64,000 bases of DNA, from the NCBI RefSeq assembly GCF_045037415.1, contig NZ_CP173438.1. One strand, given 5' to 3'. Made by a program: the position numbers and the translations under genes. Source of the stretch: Escherichia coli (lineage in GTDB: Bacteria > Pseudomonadota > Gammaproteobacteria > Enterobacterales > Enterobacteriaceae). Positions 838-56,600 of the stretch are shown here, in pieces. A model generated the notes under the pieces. It made no database searches. It saw only the letters and a program-made list of their open reading frames with translations, and had not been told where the DNA came from. How positions within the stretch are numbered: the stretch's first letter is position 1; every line of letters starts with the position of its first letter.

Positions 838-1953
838 TTAGAACTGGTAGACGATACCAACTGCAAACTGGTCATCAGCTGCTGCGCCAGTAATGGCGGC
901 GTCATCTTTATCCAGCATGTTGAATTTGTATGCAGTATAAACGTTCATGTTCTTATTGAAGTAGTACCAGGTACCAACTTCAATGTAGTTCACACGGTCA
1001 GCGTCAACATATCTATGTCCAGGTACACCTTTGATATCTTTACCTTTAGAGTACACATAACCTAAGGACGGACGCAGACCAAAGTCGAATTGGTACTGAA
1101 CAACCGCTTCAAAGTTCTGGGTTTCATTGATAAGTTGATCACGCATTATTGTATTGCCTTCTTGATCGGCAACACCTGTATCAATAGAACCCGGAGTCAT
1201 ATTACGAGTTTCACCGTACATTACAGCTGCGTAGACATTGTTCGCGTCATACTTTGCAGCCAATGACCACAGTTCAGCATTTGAACCGTTTCCATCGGCA
1301 ACTTGATCGTTGGTGCGATCAGATTTGCTATATGCACCAACGATACCAAAACCATTGATGTTATAGTCTACAGACAACGCATAGCCGTCACCATTTTGTT
1401 TCTTAGTGCTACGGTTGCTGTTTTTGCCTTGGTACTGAATCGCAAAATCAAGACCATCAACCAGGCCAAAGAAATCAGAGTTACGGTAGGTTGCAACACC
1501 GTTGGTACGACCGTTCATGAAGTTGTCAGCGGAAGCCCAGGAATCGCCACCCCATTCAACTAACATATCGGTATAAGCTGCGGCATCATAAGCAACACCG
1601 TAGTTACGGCCATAGTCAAATGATCCTAACTCGTTATATTTCAAACCGGCGAAGGTTAAACGGGTTTTTTCTTGGTTTTCACCTTCAGGCTTGCTGGCGT
1701 CGAGGTTGTATTCAAACTGACCGAAACCAGTCAGTTCGCTGGTGATTTGGGTTTCACCTTTAACACCGAAACGAGCATAGGAGGTATCTTCGTTTTCGCT
1801 GTTATTATCATCAGTATTTGACCAGATGCGTTCGCCAACCATCTTGCCGTAAAAATCAACTTTATTGCCATTTTTATTATAAATTTCAGCCGCATTTGCT
1901 GCGCCAGCAACTAATAACGCCGGGACCAGCATTGCCAGAACTTTTCTTTTCAT
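838..1953 (-). CDS. yedS: OmpC/OmpF-family outer membrane porin, intact
   Basis: Signal peptide [21 protein letters not shown], porin-like beta-strand sequence and C-terminal ...AVGIVYQF; sits between hchA and yedR. ORF track start 2022 trimmed to the MKRK ATG. Confidence 0.85.
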
Positions 1954-2262
1954 TATGTATTCCCTTGTGATTATAATCTTCATGAATATATCAATAAGTG
2001 CTGTTATCCAAAAAAAGCACATTTGGATACTATTCTATGAAGTTCATTTTATTTTAAAGATTACATGTAACAAATGTATTTAAAAGATTTCAAAATGTTT
2101 CTAATCTATTTAATATAATTCATAGTTATGAATTCTGAATATAAATATTCACGAATATTATGGATATATATCAATATGTTATGAGTTGATCGAAAAAATA
2201 GGGAGTATCAATGATTGTTGCGCTAAACGGCTGGTGTGATCTCGCGCACATTAATGAAGGCA

Positions 2263-2288
2263 TAAAAAAAAGCCGGCATCATGCCGGC
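2263..2288 (-). terminator. Rho-independent terminator (minus strand)
   Basis: GCCGGCATGATGCCGGC hairpin followed by an 8-nt U-run when read on the minus strand; no protein gene lies upstream of it. Confidence 0.55.
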
Positions 2289-2360
2289 CCAAAAAATATA
2301 AACAAGACGATAAAAGGCTAATAACGGAGGCATGATGACACAGAAAAATAAAAAGGTATA
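2263..2360 (-). ncRNA. Candidate small RNA ending at the orphan terminator (position matches the RseX locus between yedS and yedR)
   Basis: Orphan minus-strand terminator in the yedS-yedR intergenic region; 5' end not determinable from sequence. Confidence 0.3.
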
Positions 2361-2500
2361 ATTGTAATCAGTACCAATATATTGATTGAATGAATTAATA
2401 AAGCCGAAATCAAAGATAAATAACATCGTTCAAATCGATTTTTCCTGTATTCACCGCCGTTGCGCAAAATTTATCTATTTGTTCAAAAAATGATTGAGTC

Positions 2501-2884
2501 TTGACTGGCTCATCCAATGTGGAAAAATGTGACTTTTATCACATAATAGTTCTAAGTCTGAATTTTCCGGGTTATCTCAAAATGGAATACGGTTCGACAA
2601 AGATGGAAGAGAGACTCTCTCGCAGCCCTGGCGGCAAATTGGCTTTGTGGGCTTTCTATACATGGTGTGGCTATTTCGTCTGGGCAATGGCGCGATACAT
2701 CTGGGTGATGAGCCGGATCCCCGATGCCCCCGTGTCGGGATTTGAAAGTGATTTAGGATCTACCGCGGGGAAGTGGTTAGGAGCATTGGTCGGATTTCTG
2801 TTTATGGCCCTGGTTGGTGCCTTGTTAGGCGGCATTGCATGGTACACCCGACCTCGTCCCGCACGTTGCAGACGCTATGAATAA
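2501..2884 (+). CDS. yedR: Inner membrane protein YedR
   Basis: Two hydrophobic segments; conserved position before yedJ-dcm. True start may be the internal MEYGST methionine near 2582. Confidence 0.7.
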   Translation: MTGSSNVEKCDFYHIIVLSLNFPGYLKMEYGSTKMEERLSRSPGGKLALWAFYTWCGYFVWAMARYIWVMSRIPDAPVSGFESDLGSTAGKWLGALVGFLFMALVGALLGGIAWYTRPRPARCRRYE

Positions 2885-2923: not shown

Positions 2924-3619
2924 ATGGAGTTACAACACTGGCAGGCACAGTTCGATAACTGGTTGAAAAACCATCATCAACATCAGGACGCGGCGCATGA
3001 CTTGTGTCATTTTCGCCGTGTCTGGGCTACGGCACAGAAACTGGCGGCAGATGACGATGTCGATATGCTGGTGATTTTAACCGCCTGTTATTTTCACGAT
3101 ATCGTGACCCTGGCGAAAAATCATCCGCAACGGCAGCGTTCTTCAATCCTGGCGGCAGAAGAGACGCGTCGCCTGCTCCGTGAAGAGTTCGCGCAATTTC
3201 CGGCGGAGAAAATTGAGGCCGTTTGTCATGCCATTGCCGCTCACAGTTTCAGCGCGCAAATCGCCCCCTTAACAACGGAAGCTAAAATCGTCCAGGATGC
3301 GGATCGGCTGGAAGCCCTGGGGGCGATTGGCCTGGCGCGCGTATTTGCCGTTTCAGGGGCATTGGGCTTGGCGCTGTTTGATGGCGAAGATCCGTTCGCA
3401 CAGCATCGCCCGCTTGATGATAAACGCTACGCGCTGGATCATTTCCAGACAAAGTTACTGAAATTACCGCAAACCATGCAAACCGCAAGAGGCAAGCAGC
3501 TGGCACAGCACAACGCGCAATTTTTAGTCGAGTTTATGGCGAAGCTCGGTGCCGAACTGGCGGGGGAGAATGAAGGTATCGATCACAAGGTGATAGATGC
3601 GTTTTCACCCGCTGGCTGA
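2924..3619 (+). CDS. yedJ: HD-domain phosphohydrolase YedJ
   Basis: HD motif (CYFHDI); start set at [10 protein letters not shown]. Confidence 0.85.
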
Positions 3620-10687: not shown

Positions 10688-10774
10688 AACACATCAGATT
10701 TCCTGGTGTAACGAATTTTTTAAGTGCTTCTTGCTTAAGCAAGTTTCATCCCGACCCCCTCAGGGTCGGGATTT
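10688..10774 (+). ncRNA. dsrA: DsrA small regulatory RNA
   Basis: AACACATCAGATTTCCTGGTGTAACGAATTTTTTAAGTGCTTCTTGCTTAAGCAAGTTTCATCCCGACCCCCTCAGGGTCGGGATTT recognised as DsrA, including its terminal hairpin and U-run. Confidence 0.85.
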
Positions 10775-43998: not shown

Positions 43999-44074
<76 letters not shown>

Positions 44075-44127
44075 GTTTAAAAGGCATCGGCGTCAGCGGA
44101 TGTCTGGCTGAAAGGCCTGAAGAATTT

Positions 44128-44201
44128 GGCGCGTTAACAAAGCGGTTATGTAGCGGATTGCAAATCCGTCTAGTCCGGTTCGACTCCGGAACGCGCCTCC
44201 A
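44128..44201 (+). tRNA. cysT: tRNA-Cys (anticodon GCA)
   Basis: GGCGCGTTAACAAAGCGGTTATGTAGCGGATTGCAAATCCGTCTAGTCCGGTTCGACTCCGGAACGCGCCTCCA. Confidence 0.95.
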
Positions 44202-44213
44202 CTTTTTTCCCGA

Positions 44214-44300
44214 GCCCGGATGGTGGAATCGGTAGACACAAGGGATTTAAAATCCCTCGGCGTTCGCGCTGTGCGGGTTCAAGTCCCGCTCCGGGTACCA
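44214..44300 (+). tRNA. leuZ: tRNA-Leu (anticodon TAA), long variable arm
   Basis: GCCCGGATGGTGGAATCGGTAGACACAAGGGATTTAAAATCCCTCGGCGTTCGCGCTGTGCGGGTTCAAGTCCCGCTCCGGGTACCA. Confidence 0.95.
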
Positions 44301-44430: not shown

Positions 44431-45447
44431 TCATTTTCTCTGGCCACCAACTACGGGCACTACTTTAACTTTCCGGTCATATGCTGCTGTCTGTCGCGGG
44501 TTCTTATGCCCGGAAATTGCTTGCTTCTCTTCCAGGCTGCCTTCCAGATCAGAGATACCTTTTGCTTTCAGATCATGAAATGTGAAGTCTATTTGCAGAT
44601 GAGGATATTTTTCCTGTGCTGCCGCTTTGACATCACGCCAACGAGAGTTAAAACCATCACGGGTATACTTGCCACCGGTAGTTTGATGAATCACAAACAG
44701 GCTACTGATTCCCGTTTTTAATGGCAGAGAACGAGCCAGAGCTATCGCTTTCTGCAGACGAGGCGACCAGGCTTTGATTTGCTTAACGCCGGTTTTTCCC
44801 TGACGAATGTAGATCCCGGAATCGAACAGCTGGTCTTTCTGCAATGAAAGTACATCACTCTGTCTGGCCACGCATAAGTAGGCAATCTCCATTGCTACGC
44901 GAACAACATCAGGAGACACTTCATAAACGGCCTGATATTCTTCATCCGTAATATAACGTTCGCGAGCTTTCTCTTTAAACTGTTTAACTCCCTGACAAGG
45001 ATTCCTCTGAACATAACCTCGTTCATAACCCCAACGGAATACCCGGGACATAAAGCTTTTTTCCCTGTTTGCCTGAGTTCGGCTTGATAAACCGCGTTGA
45101 TCCATATAGCGCCGAATATGTTCAGGTTTGATTTTATCCGGGTCGATCTTCCCGAAGACAGGCAGAACTTTTCCGGAATATTTTGTGTAGTCTTTCCGGG
45201 TTTCGACTGCCAAATCCATAAAATCAGGGGAGGTCATGAATTGTTCCGTGAGCGCCTGAAAAGTATTTCTTTCTTTTTCGTCACCGACCGCTTTTTCATA
45301 TGCCAGCCATACGGCTGATCGTGGTGCATCCAATGCGCACAGGCGTATCGCTTTGTTATCTTTATTCCTGAATTCGTAGGCCGCTTTGCCCTGGTAAACA
45401 CGAGGCGGCATCCAGTTATCTGCTGGGTTCTTTCTCTTTCCGGCCAT
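44431..45447 (-). CDS. int: Phage tyrosine integrase (lambda Int family)
   Basis: C-terminal catalytic region ...HDLKAKGISD...ISGHKNPRQTAAYDRK...; N-terminus MAGKRKNPADNWMPPRVY resembles the lambda Int arm-binding start; start codon ambiguous (45447 or 45477). Confidence 0.85.
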   Translation of the reverse strand: MAGKRKNPADNWMPPRVYQGKAAYEFRNKDNKAIRLCALDAPRSAVWLAYEKAVGDEKERNTFQALTEQFMTSPDFMDLAVETRKDYTKYSGKVLPVFGKIDPDKIKPEHIRRYMDQRGLSSRTQANREKSFMSRVFRWGYERGYVQRNPCQGVKQFKEKARERYITDEEYQAVYEVSPDVVRVAMEIAYLCVARQSDVLSLQKDQLFDSGIYIRQGKTGVKQIKAWSPRLQKAIALARSLPLKTGISSLFVIHQTTGGKYTRDGFNSRWRDVKAAAQEKYPHLQIDFTFHDLKAKGISDLEGSLEEKQAISGHKNPRQTAAYDRKVKVVPVVGGQRK

Positions 45448-45679
45448 TAAATATTGCTCCAAAATCAGGTTCATCATCTTTTCGCGTCGTCACCTCCTGT
45501 AAATTGCGAAATTTTATTGGGTTCATGAAATGGCCCCAGGTTGTTTTTGGGTGTCCGTCAGCCCTTTCCATGAAGAAAATTCCAGCCCGGCGAAGAGCCT
45601 CACATTGCTTTGATTTAAGTGGGCTTCCCGTCAGCTCGACCATTTCTTCTCTGGTGATTATGTCGTGATCGCTTTTCAT
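45416..45679 (-). CDS. xis: Excisionase-like DNA-binding protein (DUF4224-like)
   Basis: ITREEMVELTG...ALRRAGIFF...GHPK motif pattern; overlaps the integrase 5' end as is typical for xis-int. Confidence 0.55.
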   Translation of the reverse strand: MKSDHDIITREEMVELTGSPLKSKQCEALRRAGIFFMERADGHPKTTWGHFMNPIKFRNLQEVTTRKDDEPDFGAIFNGRKEKEPSR

Positions 45680-51757: not shown

Positions 51758-52509
51758 ACATCCTCCCGTTACTTGATAGACCCATAGCCTTCCAGAGAAG
51801 TTTTATCCGTCTTGAAATGGGCGTGACTGCCGCATTGTTTCTGTCGCAGTTGACGTACTGGACAAACAGAACAACTGACGACGGCTGGGTATATAAAACC
51901 CAGGATGAGTGGGAAGAGGAAACAGGGCTTTCACGATACGAGCAGGAGGGCGCGCGCAAAAAACTACGTGGTCTCGGCGTCTTGCTGGAACGTAAACAGG
52001 GCTTGCCTGCCAGGCTGTACTACAAAATCGATAATGATGTGTTGTGCCAGCTACTTACGTCCGCATACAAGGATGCGGAAAAACCACATACAGGTGAGGG
52101 GAAAACCACCAGGCCTGTACGTGGAAAACCAACAAACATTCTTACAGAGAATACTACAGAGATTATTACTGATGGTGAATCGGCTGACGCCGACACCCAA
52201 CAACCTGCCGACCAGAGAATAAATTATCAGGTGATACTCGATACCTATCACGAGATTTTGCCAGAGATGCCACCAGTGAAAATCCTCACTGACGGCAGAA
52301 AAAAACACCTTCGCACTTTCTGGAAAAAATTCAATTTCAATGAGTCCCGTTGGCGGGCCTATCTGGAATTTATCGGTGGCAATTGTCGCTGGATGCTGGA
52401 GGACAGGCCAAATGGCAGGGGAGGATTCTGGCGGCGTAAAAATCTTGATTATCTGATTACCGAACGCTGCTATGTTTCGGTCAAGGAAGAACGCGCAAAT
52501 GATAAATAA
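51754..52509 (+). CDS. Phage replication initiation protein (O-like / replisome organiser)
   Basis: N-terminal winged-helix-like region and conserved phage C-terminus (...GGFWRRKNLDYLI); immediately precedes the helicase. Confidence 0.65.
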   Translation: MNILPLLDRPIAFQRSFIRLEMGVTAALFLSQLTYWTNRTTDDGWVYKTQDEWEEETGLSRYEQEGARKKLRGLGVLLERKQGLPARLYYKIDNDVLCQLLTSAYKDAEKPHTGEGKTTRPVRGKPTNILTENTTEIITDGESADADTQQPADQRINYQVILDTYHEILPEMPPVKILTDGRKKHLRTFWKKFNFNESRWRAYLEFIGGNCRWMLEDRPNGRGGFWRRKNLDYLITERCYVSVKEERANDK

Positions 52510-53914
52510 CGCGATTGCACTGTACAGCGTTGACGCAGAACAGGCTGTTCTGGGCTGTCTGATGCTGAATACCGACCACGACAGAACCAATGCGGTATTT
52601 GCGTTACTGAAACCGGAAACGTTTTATATCAATGCGCATCAGGTTATCTACCGGGAGATCAAAGGATTATTTCAAGCTGATAAACCAACTGACCTGATAA
52701 CACTGACCGAACTGATGGAATCGAAGGGGCTGTATGAGCGCGTGGGGGGATTCGCATACCTGGCTGAAATGAGTAAGGCGGCGATTCCGGCCTCAATGGT
52801 CAACTACGCGAAAATTGTACGTGAAAAAGCCATTCTTCGTTATGCCGTGGAAAAGTTGAATTCTTGTCTGGAGATTATGATCCAGCCTGCAGATATGACT
52901 GCTACTGACAGGATCACCGCCGTTCAGCAAGTGATTGGGCAGGTGGCCGAACATTCCCGTACCGGGCATAAGGGCGGTTTGCGTCCGGCAAGTGAAGTCG
53001 TCGATGACTGGATAGATGACCTTGAGCGCCGTTTCAATGATCCAGCACATGCAGCCGGACTAACGCTCGGAATCGAAAGCCTTGATCGCTTAATGGCACC
53101 AAAGCAGGCGTTAAGAGGTTCATTGGTCGTTATTGGTGCCCGGCCAAAAATGGGCAAGACAGCCGCGTTTAATAAAATTGCGGTGCATTTTGCTCTGAAT
53201 CATCGTTTGCCGACGCTGGTATTTAGCCTGGAAATGACTGACAGAAGTCTCATTGAACGCATGGTTGCGCAGGAAGCAAAGGTCAATTCGGAGATTTTTT
53301 ATCTTGGCCCTAACGATGAATCTGAATTGAGTCTCGCAATAGCAAAGGCGGGGGAGATTGCCGAATCCAACATGATGATTGACAGCACGGCAGGTGTAAC
53401 CCTTGCGCATATTGTCGCTGAATGTCGAAAAGTTAAACGGATGCGTGGCTCGGTTGGCCTGGTGGCAATTGACTATTTGACGCTGATGAAGACCGAATCG
53501 GCAGAGCGTAGGGATATTGCGTATGGCGATATCACAACCGGTTTGAAGAACCTGGCAAAAGAGCTGGATTGTGTTGTGGTCCTGCTGACGCAACTCAACC
53601 GAAAGCTTGAAGAACGTGCCGATAAGCGGCCTAACCCGAGCGACAGTAAAGATACCGGGCAGATCGAACAAGATTGCGATGTCTGGATTGGCCTCTATCG
53701 TGATGCTGTTTATAACGAAAATGCCGACCCAAATCTCATGGAAATGTTGCTACGTCTGAACCGCGAAGGACCATCGGGAACAGCCTATGCCCTGATGAAA
53801 AATGGCTCAGTTATTGATATCAGCGATGAGGAGGTTTATCGCCTTACCAACGACCGCTCAGAAAAAAATAAACGTTATTCCCGTAGCGATAATTCTCGCA
53901 CAAATGAATTTTAA
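52499..53914 (+). CDS. Replicative DNA helicase, DnaB family (phage-encoded)
   Basis: DnaB N-terminal domain (AEQAVLGCLML...), Walker A GARPKMGKTA, RecA-like core. Confidence 0.9.
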   Translation: MINNAIALYSVDAEQAVLGCLMLNTDHDRTNAVFALLKPETFYINAHQVIYREIKGLFQADKPTDLITLTELMESKGLYERVGGFAYLAEMSKAAIPASMVNYAKIVREKAILRYAVEKLNSCLEIMIQPADMTATDRITAVQQVIGQVAEHSRTGHKGGLRPASEVVDDWIDDLERRFNDPAHAAGLTLGIESLDRLMAPKQALRGSLVVIGARPKMGKTAAFNKIAVHFALNHRLPTLVFSLEMTDRSLIERMVAQEAKVNSEIFYLGPNDESELSLAIAKAGEIAESNMMIDSTAGVTLAHIVAECRKVKRMRGSVGLVAIDYLTLMKTESAERRDIAYGDITTGLKNLAKELDCVVVLLTQLNRKLEERADKRPNPSDSKDTGQIEQDCDVWIGLYRDAVYNENADPNLMEMLLRLNREGPSGTAYALMKNGSVIDISDEEVYRLTNDRSEKNKRYSRSDNSRTNEF

Positions 53915-53952
53915 CCACGCCTGACCAGCGTGAAATAACCGAGGAAAGACCA

Positions 53953-54363
53953 ATGACCACCACTCCAGGCAAATTAGAGTACCCGTCGGACAAAGGACAC
54001 ATAGACGACGGTAAAAACTATCTCGACGTCATTTTGTGGAATATGAACGTCGGGCCACGTGCGCGCACTCGCGCGGTTTTTGTGCCAAGACCTAAAGCAG
54101 GCAATTTTTCAACCCCTGCTAAGCCTGCCCGTCAGGCATCCGTAGCCGCAGCGCCAGCAGTGAAACGTAAGGGCAAAACGCACACCGGGATCGCGATTCG
54201 CAGAAATGGTGAGCGGCAAGTGAAACTCCACGAAACAGCGACAACCTGGTGTGCCTCACCGCATGAAACTTACGACAAGATAACCGGGCAGCGCATTGGC
54301 GCGCCTGGTCGCTGCCGCCTGCTGCTGAGTTCCATCACTCCGATAGCAAAGAAAGGGGCGTGA
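53953..54363 (+). CDS. Hypothetical prophage protein
   Basis: 136-aa ORF preceded by the conserved intercistronic motif. Confidence 0.5.
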   Translation: MTTTPGKLEYPSDKGHIDDGKNYLDVILWNMNVGPRARTRAVFVPRPKAGNFSTPAKPARQASVAAAPAVKRKGKTHTGIAIRRNGERQVKLHETATTWCASPHETYDKITGQRIGAPGRCRLLLSSITPIAKKGA

Positions 54364-54364
54364 T

Positions 54365-54601
54365 ATGGCCGGGCAATCAGATTACCTGCCGCCCGGCTTA
54401 CCACACAACCGCGCCAAATGGCCCCAGGAATACCAGCTTAAAGAGCACTACGACATGCGAGCGGCGGCGCTGATCCGCCAACTCTTTGAGAAACGTATTC
54501 CGAGGGGAAGCGTGATTGAGCAAATCGGAATGACGCCAGATACGTACCGGGAATTTTTCAGAGAGCGTCTGAACTACTGGAGAGGGGTGATGGAACAATG
54601 A
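54365..54601 (+). CDS. Hypothetical prophage protein
   Basis: 78-aa ORF, start abuts upstream stop. Confidence 0.45.
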   Translation: MAGQSDYLPPGLPHNRAKWPQEYQLKEHYDMRAAALIRQLFEKRIPRGSVIEQIGMTPDTYREFFRERLNYWRGVMEQ

Positions 54602-54909
54602 AATACAAACGGTGGGTGCGTGCGGAAGTCGTAATCATCAAACAATGTGCGGGCAGCATGACAGTTGAACGTATAGGGCAGCTTATTGGCAGAACCGGTG
54701 CAGCGGTACGCACAAAAGCGCGCGAGCTGAAAATCTGTATGTATCTGCGGGGTAATTATCACCAGTCAGTGAAATACCTCCAGGAAGATATCGAGCTGGC
54801 AAGGGAATTACATCAGTCGGGTATTAATCGCCAGGATATCGCAGAAAAACTCGAAATGCCGATCGGAGCGGTGAATCAGTTTGTTTATTTTGAGCGGAGA
54901 ATTTCATGA
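54598..54909 (+). CDS. Hypothetical prophage protein with HTH-like segments
   Basis: 103-aa ORF; stop/start overlaps on both sides. Confidence 0.45.
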   Translation: MKYKRWVRAEVVIIKQCAGSMTVERIGQLIGRTGAAVRTKARELKICMYLRGNYHQSVKYLQEDIELARELHQSGINRQDIAEKLEMPIGAVNQFVYFERRIS

Positions 54910-55130
54910 AAGAACTTTTTCTTGCATTTGTGCCCCGGTTTATTAATGACCAGATCGCACTGACTGATAATGGTGAACAATATGAAATTGCCTGCAGCAT
55001 GGTGGATGTGAATCCTGGCGAACGGTATGACGCGATGTGTGACCTGAAAATATTTACCTGGCTGGGTTGGGCTATTCCGTGTGGAGAACCAACCAATATT
55101 CGTCCGTTTGAGAGCAGGGAGGCTGTATGA
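54906..55130 (+). CDS. Hypothetical prophage protein
   Basis: 74-aa ORF. Confidence 0.4.
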   Translation: MKELFLAFVPRFINDQIALTDNGEQYEIACSMVDVNPGERYDAMCDLKIFTWLGWAIPCGEPTNIRPFESREAV

Positions 55131-55317
55131 GTGAATTGAAAATACGTCGCAAGGCAATAGCACGCGTTAAAAATCTATTACCAGTGCCTGTCAAATATCG
55201 TTTTTGTGGTGGGAATGTACGGATTGGTACGGATGTATGGTGATTGCGGAGTGACGTAAAACGAATCGTTGTGGGTGTAATATCGTCAATATCATTGGTT
55301 TCCCGGAGGGAAAGGAC

Positions 55318-55539
55318 ATGTTTGGCGATAAACTGGAGTTACCACGGAACGGGCGGATAGTGCTCTATATTTCAGATTACAAAGTAACCCGGGCTGAGGT
55401 GTTGGAACCGGAAAAACATCTGGTCACGTTACCGGACATTATTGAGTTGTATAAGCGGGTCGGATATGTGGACTTGCATCGCGATGATGTTCCCGTTGAG
55501 TGTATGGAATGTGAACACCGGAGGTTTGAAGTTGATTGA
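55318..55539 (+). CDS. Hypothetical prophage protein
   Basis: 73-aa ORF with GGAGG-like RBS. Confidence 0.45.
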   Translation: MFGDKLELPRNGRIVLYISDYKVTRAEVLEPEKHLVTLPDIIELYKRVGYVDLHRDDVPVECMECEHRRFEVD

Positions 55540-55763
55540 ATTGACTTAGAAAAAGTCCGGGGCTATAGTTTCCGCGCAGCCGCAAAATCGGTTGCCGGGA
55601 TTGGCGTCCCGGATATCTAAGTGACGCATAGCCGCGTTAGCGGTTTTTTTATGTGTTAGGCACGGCCACATTCGCATTATGGTGGGCTGTGTGGGGGCTT
55701 CTGTGGAAGCGCCGGGTTCACTTAGCCGGTTACGCCAACCCTGCACAGCTCACCACCAGATGA

Positions 55764-56600
55764 TTGGCGTCGCTGGTGGTGATGAAAAAAACACTAAGTG
55801 AGGCCACTGCGATGACAGTCCAAATATCTGCGGAATCCCTTTCTCCGCTACATCATAACCAACTTCCCGTCATCACTACTGAATTGCTTGCCAGTTTGTA
55901 TGGCACGGAAGTAAATGGTATCCAGCAAAACTTCAAGCGCAACATCGCCAGATTTGTCGTAGGAAAGCATTTTTTTAAGCTGGAAGGTAATGAATTACGC
56001 GACTTCAAAAACAGACTGACAGATAGTCAGTCAGTTGCTAAACATACCCGATCCCTCATTCTCTGGACAGAACGCGGCGCAGCTCGCCATGCCAAAATGC
56101 TGGAAACAGAACAGGCCTGGGAAGTTTTCGAAAAGCTGGAAGATTGTTATTTTAGCCAGCGTCCAGAGAGGCGGAGTACAACTACCGATGACCGTACTCC
56201 CTTGCGTGATGCCGTTAATATACTGGTCGGCAAGAAAGGCATGATGTATCCCGATGCCTACACCATGATTCATCAACGCTTCGCCGTCTCTCACATAGAA
56301 CAACTGTCACAGACGCAAATGTTAGAGGCGATTGAATACATCCACTGCCTGCTACTCGATGAAAATCACCCAACCATTCCAGATTTTTCTTTTATCACCA
56401 CTATCAAAAATGGAAAAGTGACCGGGATGCGCCATGTTGCCAAAGGCGAACATCTGATGACCTTTGACGCTTTCAAAGAGATCGCTGAGCGGGCAGGGTA
56501 TCTGGTGATCCACAGCGACAATCTGCGAAGTATGACACTGGATAAATTGATGGTAATGGGGAAAAAGTCGGCTATATCCGTTGCTAATTCAGCATTTTGA
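55764..56600 (+). CDS. ORF6N/KilA-N-domain protein (antirepressor-like)
   Basis: N-terminal ...LPVITTELLASLYGTEVNGIQQNFKRNIARFVVGKHFFKLEGNELRDF... pattern; start codon uncertain. Confidence 0.6.
   Translation: MASLVVMKKTLSEATAMTVQISAESLSPLHHNQLPVITTELLASLYGTEVNGIQQNFKRNIARFVVGKHFFKLEGNELRDFKNRLTDSQSVAKHTRSLILWTERGAARHAKMLETEQAWEVFEKLEDCYFSQRPERRSTTTDDRTPLRDAVNILVGKKGMMYPDAYTMIHQRFAVSHIEQLSQTQMLEAIEYIHCLLLDENHPTIPDFSFITTIKNGKVTGMRHVAKGEHLMTFDAFKEIAERAGYLVIHSDNLRSMTLDKLMVMGKKSAISVANSAF

Follow-up and report, generated by a model that had tools for sequence, protein, structure and literature searches.

Introduction

The small RNAs MicA, RybB, MicC, MicF and OmrA/OmrB are Hfq-dependent molecules of ∼ 70–110 nt that end in an intrinsic terminator with a U-tail and act on omp mRNAs, which they repress through base pairing at the ribosome-binding site or close to it. 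RseX is like them in each of these respects, and it shares its ompA target with MicA and its ompC target with MicC (PMC1804206), although none of these RNAs has a sequence relationship to RseX. Moreover, their expression is under the control of sigma-E or EnvZ/OmpR and they are easy to detect, whereas RseX has no known stress-responsive promoter, is silenced by H-NS/StpA and, as judged by an exact-pattern scan of one genome per species, is confined to Escherichia.

RseX was recovered as a suppressor that, in multicopy, relieves the essentiality of RseP and, in the later accounts through which that work is cited here, represses ompA and ompC, for which it depends on Hfq (Douchin et al., 2006, via PMC8313858 and PMC7648144). 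The native RNA is undetectable in wild-type K-12 and appears once H-NS (with StpA) is removed, when species of ∼ 91 nt and ∼ 75 nt are seen; RseX also binds and represses fimB and ihfB (PMC8313858). In K-12 the 3′ end of the RNA alone (RseX+52) represses fepA, an activity that needs exposed terminator-loop nucleotides, Hfq and RNase E and that involves no detectable pairing (PMC11979758). SdsR and ArrS resemble the K-12 RseX 3′ end in this, since they too display terminator-loop-dependent fepA repression with no detectable pairing (PMC11979758).

Here, a stretch of 64,000 nucleotides of Escherichia coli DNA (the window) was analysed around a terminator-like element that an earlier note, made from the sequence alone, had tentatively linked to RseX. 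Compared with K-12 RseX (b4603; RF01401), the RNA encoded in the window is alike in locus, relative strand, 91-nt length, terminator and central core; it differs in a G21C substitution that is predicted to abolish a weak 5′ hairpin and to add a 9-nt complement to the terminator apex.

Results

The orphan terminator belongs to rseX

A terminator scan of positions 1900..2700 returned a single terminator-like site, which lies on the minus strand (shuffles of the region give 0.4 ± 0.8). The site, read on the minus strand from 2290 to 2270 as GGGCCGGCAUGAUGCCGGCUU, is a 9-bp hairpin in which six of the nine pairs are G-C and which is closed by a 3-nt loop. It is followed directly on the same strand by TTTTTTTT, and the run of eight U residues ends at 2264. 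When the isolated hairpin (2292 to 2262) was folded, a free energy of −14.6 kcal/mol (z = −3.55) was obtained, and none of 200 dinucleotide shuffles reached this stability. Read on the plus strand, the hairpin leads into CCAAAAAA, which has no T-run, and the rseX terminator therefore works in one direction only. The description of an orphan minus-strand terminator in the yedS–yedR gap, as given in the earlier note, is thus borne out. All seven pairs of the terminator core are invariant among nine Escherichia sequences. The U8 tail, by analogy with Hfq-bound small RNAs in general and with the RseX literature (PMC8313858, PMC11979758), is expected to be the binding site for the proximal face of Hfq. 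The U-rich stretch immediately upstream of the hairpin (Table 1), which is conserved across the Escherichia alignment except for a 1-nt length variation in its U-run, is probably part of the same Hfq-binding module.

No protein gene feeds this terminator, as had been proposed, and the next gene upstream of it, drpB (yedR), has the opposite strand. Two open reading frames do cross the hairpin, one of 67 aa on the minus strand (2223..2426) and one of 36 aa on the plus strand (2211..2321), and PGAP labels the counterpart of the plus-strand frame a ‘hypothetical protein’ in one genome at least (ECZP248). The chance that the region codes for a small protein is nevertheless vanishingly small. Neither frame has a Pfam match, and the 67-aa frame has no ATG in K-12; in many other alleles 1-nt indels in T-runs shift or truncate it, the length variation falling in homopolymer runs. 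With no Pfam match and a reading frame that is not conserved across homologues, the coding readings were rejected, and the ‘hypothetical protein’ call across the rseX terminator is probably an annotation artefact.

The RNA that the terminator serves was identified with Rfam. Model RF01401 (rseX) matched the minus strand from 2354 to 2265 over model positions 1–94 of 94, with a score of 93.8 bits against a gathering score of 50 bits. In the curated record for E. coli K-12 MG1655 the ncRNA gene rseX (b4603) occupies 2033649..2033739; its neighbours are drpB and the yedS pseudogene, and it shares the strand of the latter. The window locus has the same arrangement in reverse orientation, with rseX divergent from drpB and on the same strand as the porin gene. 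The earlier note, which could match the position but did not recognise the sequence, had proposed aligning the region with the annotated gene; this alignment gave 88 of 91 identical positions on the right strand. The three substitutions relative to K-12 b4603 are A9U, G21C and U26C, and from nt 27 to nt 91 the window RNA is the K-12 sequence, including the terminator, its loop, the U-tail and the U-rich stretch. An annotated rseX elsewhere or on the other strand would have spoken against RseX as the source; the K-12 neighbours and the relative strand agree with the window locus. The interval 2263..2420 singled out at the outset holds the entire small RNA gene together with its promoter region.

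The orphan terminator thus closes a known gene, rseX. The feature as a whole is almost certainly rseX, in which a probable, weak sigma-70 promoter would drive a 91-nt small RNA that, as in K-12, would be Hfq-dependent, trans-acting and normally silenced by H-NS/StpA. The identity, position, strand and terminator of the gene are observed directly in the window, as are its conservation and its in silico pairing described below. The locus looks orphan because PGAP-annotated genomes list nothing, or a spurious small CDS, there. Indeed, of the 4876 complete E. coli genomes that bear rseX, nearly all have nothing annotated there by NCBI PGAP, with an occasional spurious ‘hypothetical protein’.

Table 1. 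Coordinates of rseX, its elements and its neighbours in the window; nt numbers count from the annotated 5′ end of the RNA.
Feature	Window position	Strand	Remarks
hchA	start codon at 245	-	
Porin_1 gene, yedS position, full-length	838..1953	-	371 aa; Pfam 397 bits
rseX gene	2264..2354	-	91-nt sRNA; nt 1 = 2354, nt 91 = 2264
U8 tail	2264..2271	-	RNA nt 84-91; part of terminator; from the sequence itself
Intrinsic terminator hairpin	2270..2290	-	RNA nt 65-85; core GCCGGCA-UGA-UGCCGGC plus two G.U pairs
U-rich single-stranded stretch UUGUUUAUAUUUUUU	2291..2305	-	nt 50-64; immediately upstream of terminator
Predicted target-pairing core GUUAUUAGCCUUUUAUCGUCUU	2304..2325	-	nt 30-51; from local duplexes and conservation
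nt 18-26 CAUCAUGCC	2329..2337	-	perfect 9-nt complement of nt 70-78; holds derived G21C (window 2334)
Probable rseX -10, TACAAT	2361..2366	-	5/6 matches; positions -12 to -7 from annotated 5′ end
Weak -35-like element, TTCAAT	2385..2390	-	3/6 matches; 18-bp spacer; inferred, read from the sequence
drpB (yedR)	2582..2884	+	
yedJ	2924..3619	+	

The setting of rseX

The flanking genes correspond to those named in the earlier note: a Porin_1 gene stands at the yedS position and yedR is drpB (Table 1). In the window map yedJ is followed by dcm and vsr, and seven other Escherichia loci share the gene order dcm-yedJ-drpB-rseX-porin-hchA. In this comparison the matches to yedJ and to an hchA fragment serve as markers of homologous DNA and of gene order, and not as measures of protein identity. 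Between the porin gene and drpB lies an intergenic island of 628 bp with 30% G+C. The G+C fraction is 0.21–0.37 over positions 1900–2600, rises to ∼ 0.5–0.58 beyond ∼ 2600 on the drpB side and is ∼ 0.4–0.48 across the porin gene. The low G+C content of the island (0.21–0.37) is typical of H-NS-bound DNA and so fits silencing by H-NS.

The porin gene at the yedS position is intact in the window, and yedS of K-12 is a pseudogene. At the protein level the window porin is 47–57% identical to the K-12 yedS remnant and 50–64% identical to porins at the same locus in other Escherichia, whereas DrpB is 94–98% identical; the porin slot beside rseX is therefore hypervariable.

Elsewhere in the window, a DsrA small RNA gene was located at 10688..10774 on the plus strand (Rfam RF00014, 102.5 bits, full model); we take DsrA to be an expected neighbour in this part of the E. 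coli chromosome. A cluster of tRNA-Gly(GCC), tRNA-Cys(GCA) and tRNA-Leu(UAA) genes (43999..44300, plus strand) has a phage-type integrase gene (44431..45477, minus strand) ∼ 130 bp downstream, which suggests a prophage or island integrated beside the tRNA-Leu gene. A further prophage-like block on the plus strand (52472..56600) opens with a DnaB-type helicase gene (52472..53914). Rfam matches in this block were isrK at 55576..55650 (80.4 bits), c4 target a1/b1 at 55563..55615 and C4 antisense RNA at 55675..55760 (75.2 bits). Directly after the C4 antisense RNA match comes an ORF6N-domain (antirepressor-like) gene at 55764..56600. The layout of the block resembles the c4-ant immunity module of phages P1 and P7.

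Distribution and conservation of rseX

Of 5426 complete E. coli genomes, 4876 carry the 91-nt rseX sequence, with a median of one copy per genome, and ∼ 10% of the genomes are without it. The exact window allele is present in 501 of the 4876 rseX-bearing genomes (∼ 10%). When one genome from each of 100,044 species was scanned with an exact 18-base pattern, rseX was found in Escherichia only (E. coli lineages, E. whittamii, Escherichia sp. E1V33 and MOD1-EC7003), a result to be read with the proviso that diverged homologues in other genera, Salmonella for example, could escape an exact-match pattern. Nine matches to the pattern outside Escherichia (in Paenibacillus, Photobacterium and assorted MAGs) were without wider BLAST similarity and were set aside as chance matches; Rfam gave no rseX match for the three of the nine to which it was applied. 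In E. coli and the sister Escherichia lineages, full-model matches to RF01401 score 89.6–97.3 bits.

In the Escherichia alignment, conservation is far higher in the RseX RNA than in the DNA that lies upstream of the promoter, and the excess of conservation over the flanks across Escherichia species speaks for purifying selection on rseX in general. Variation within the RNA is concentrated at nt 6–10 and nt 24–32. The terminator is invariant, and so is the core at nt 30–51 across the sampled Escherichia alleles, bar two changes in one strain. A covariation test of the Rfam structure showed 98.4% of cells paired and no compensatory changes, with shuffles performing equally, the sequences being too similar to one another.

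The rseX promoter and a promoter-like site on the opposite strand

A promoter ∼ 90 nt upstream of the terminator had been foreseen in the earlier note, and this was upheld in part. The hexamer TACAAT stands at the right distance, and within it T-12, A-8 and T-7 do not vary, A-11 being retained by seven of the eight sequences that cover it. On the other hand, the −35-like element is weak, and a consensus promoter scan made no call at the rseX promoter. For K-12 rseX, a sigma-70 promoter with 5′-RACE support is reported at second hand (PMC8313858, citing Chen 2002 and Douchin 2006). A re-analysis of transcription start sites places rseX among the genes with a start shifted downstream, apparently by ∼ 29 bp (PMC7967276). 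The annotated 5′ end is disputed, both through this shift and through the short form of ∼ 75 nt on northern blots.

Opposite rseX, on the plus strand, lies a sigma-70-like site, ATGACA-16 bp-TATAAT (2335..2362), with 11 of 12 consensus matches. It is the only promoter match of at least 11/12 on either strand of the 64-kb window; when the AT-rich island is shuffled, 5.7% of the shuffles yield a match as good. Across all 15 of the Escherichia loci that cover the site, neither hexamer varies and the spacing stays at 16 bp, and the sequence of the spacer varies. The −35 hexamer falls within rseX (+15..+20), and the −10 hexamer (2357..2362) overlaps the rseX −10 by 2 bp. As read from the sequence, the site predicts a divergent start near 2369 toward drpB. 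It was ruled out as the drpB promoter, which has been mapped to a different stretch, bounded by the old GTG-1 (window 2519) and ATG-22 (window 2582) (PMC7648144). The site could be a promoter in competition with rseX, either a second one or a cryptic one, and the conservation of the RseX 5′ end could in part be due to it.

Predicted pairing with ompA and ompC

Pairing was searched in local 16-nt windows against positions −40..+20 of the targets, with mononucleotide-shuffle controls and with the ompA and ompC sequences of K-12, a strain other than that of the window. In this in silico search, nt 37–51 of RseX paired with ompA −23..−7 at −17.5 kcal/mol (2% of shuffles as good) and nt 30–44 paired with ompC −15..+1 at −16.6 kcal/mol (1% of shuffles as good). 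The ompA-pairing segment lies outside the three substitutions and is identical in the K-12 and window alleles. The ompC-pairing nt 30–44 of K-12 is likewise unchanged in the window allele, although the top ompC duplex of this allele is formed by nt 25–40 (−16.9 kcal/mol) and includes U26C. The Hfq dependence, the targets and the H-NS silencing of RseX come from the K-12 literature, and we infer that they are the same in the window strain despite A9U, G21C and U26C.

Two other pairing calculations were discarded. Whole-length RNAduplex runs of RseX against the ompA, ompC and porin 5′ UTRs gave loop-ridden duplexes at shuffle level (z −0.4 to −1.1) and were replaced by the local search. For the neighbouring porin gene's translation-initiation region, pairing reached −8.1 to −9.3 kcal/mol, values that 73–97% of shuffles match or better.

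The G21C allele and its predicted fold

In K-12, the segment CAUGAUGC at nt 18–25 is a direct repeat of nt 72–79, the terminator apex, and is a near-palindrome. Because this apex repeat is near-palindromic, the single change G21C makes nt 18–26 (Table 1) a perfect complement of nt 70–78, GGCAUGAUG (window 2277..2285), which comprises the end of the terminator 5′ arm, the loop and the first two bases of the 3′ arm. In partition-function calculations the mean terminator-pair probability was 0.95 for the K-12 allele and 0.03 for the window allele, as an equilibrium prediction made without co-transcriptional kinetics or Hfq and with an energy difference of 2.8 kcal/mol. The nearest allele, which has U9 and C26 together with G21 (CH4790 and 2024CK-00616), gave 0.95. 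The predicted loss of the terminator in the window allele was robust to four energy-parameter sets and to temperatures of 25, 37 and 42°C. Moreover, nascent prefixes of 76–80 nt of this allele are already predicted to form the alternative helix, and the predicted helix vanishes when the RNA starts near nt 30.

Of the 16 other alleles examined, 14 retain G21, and for each of these 14 the terminator is predicted at ∼ 0.95 with no competing helix. The exceptions, SK1144 and FDAARGOS_1251, carry G21C, and the SK1144 sequence is that of the window across the whole aligned stretch, with 100% identity over 411 bp. In the 5′ hairpin of the Rfam consensus, six of seven pairs are kept in the window allele and G21C introduces one C.U mismatch; the minimum free energy of the segment is 0 in the window allele, compared with −1.7 to −2.7 kcal/mol in other alleles. 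The 5′ hairpin is a weak predicted element and is not regarded here as defining RseX. If the competing helix forms as modelled, 3′-end formation or activity of the window RseX may differ, and the predicted G21C fold is treated here as an unexplained feature of the allele rather than as a finding.

Two known systems offer a comparison for this fold. In contrast to the situation in SdsR and ArrS, the loop residues U74-G75-A76 of the window allele are predicted to be paired with nt 20–22; if they are, the fepA activity could be masked in the full-length RNA. As in attenuators of the trp-leader type, an upstream segment of the window allele can pair with the terminator 5′ arm and loop before the 3′ arm; unlike them, the window rseX is without a leader peptide, a ligand-binding domain or a protein-binding motif. 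The likeness is one of predicted structure only, and among the alleles sampled the helix is confined to the G21C family. It is held to be improbable that the 5′ part of RseX acts as a built-in anti-terminator or terminator-loop mask in the G21C allele, and hence as a natural allelic switch of the 3′ module. Were this so, termination at 2264 could be lowered, with possible read-through toward the intact porin gene; alternatively, control of fepA through the loop could be off in the full-length RNA and still active in 5′-shortened forms.

The predicted helix also bears on whether the 91-nt RNA might be mainly the terminated leader (attenuator) by-product of the yedS-type porin gene 310 nt downstream, with transcription from the rseX promoter passing a regulated terminator to enter the porin gene, a reading under which a role in trans would still be possible. 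The 5′ segment of the window allele is predicted to out-compete the terminator, already in the 76–80-nt prefixes, and the porin gene that such a leader would serve is intact in this strain. In addition, every Escherichia locus examined has rseX and the porin gene side by side on one strand, despite replacement or high divergence of the porin itself (50–64% identity), and in RNA-seq of an hns mutant RseX ‘and surrounding areas’ rise together (PMC8313858). However, the alternative helix occurs only in G21C alleles, the 14 others of 16 retaining the terminator at ∼ 0.95, and an attenuating fold is thus not conserved. K-12 retains rseX beside a yedS pseudogene, and the 310-nt spacer (∼ 20–30% G+C) has promoter-like sites of its own (2139..2112 and 2073..2046). 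Plasmid-borne RseX acts in trans without the porin gene (PMC8313858, PMC11979758), and the pairing of RseX with the porin translation-initiation region is not above chance. Taken together, these points make a porin leader decidedly unlikely, and a trans-acting RseX is the reading that is retained.

A different view of G21C is that it is neutral or degenerative and that rseX of the window strain is a decaying relic, H-NS-silent, with its 5′ hairpin lost, its RNA misfolded and no selected function. The substitution does strike a position that is invariant in 14 of 16 other alleles, rseX is absent from ∼ 10% of complete E. coli genomes, and it is listed among the small RNA genes repeatedly lost in E. 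coli and Shigella lineages (PMC3318445). That native RseX is undetectable in wild-type K-12 points the same way. However, the pairing core, the U-rich stretch and the terminator are intact, and an exact allele shared by 501 genomes is not a private lesion. The far greater conservation of RseX than of its flanks across Escherichia species also argues against it. A relic is therefore regarded as unlikely.

Discussion

In the mechanism proposed for this locus, a weak sigma-70 promoter (TACAAT, 2366..2361) would start the primary transcript at ∼ 2354 on the minus strand, and the intrinsic terminator (2290..2264) would end it after 91 nt. The single-stranded central core would pair with the Shine–Dalgarno regions of the ompA and ompC mRNAs and other segments of RseX would pair with fimB and ihfB, and such pairing would block translation and lower mRNA levels. 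The terminator stem–loop and the U-tail would double as the Hfq-binding module and, as reported for K-12, the terminator loop would also be required for the Hfq- and RNase E-dependent repression of fepA. The gene occupies an island of 30% G+C and is subject in K-12 to silencing by H-NS/StpA, so that it would normally be unexpressed. If the sigma-70-like site on the opposite strand does compete with rseX, it may contribute to this well-known silence.

RseX, its targets, its Hfq dependence and its silencing by H-NS are all published, and no new biology is established here. The two points at the level of the allele, namely the effect of G21C and the promoter-like site on the opposite strand, would refine the picture of one minor small RNA and would carry no general principle. 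Overall, by flagging the orphan terminator, a scan of this kind brings to light a genuine regulator that has been studied by experiment and that is overlooked in routine annotation.
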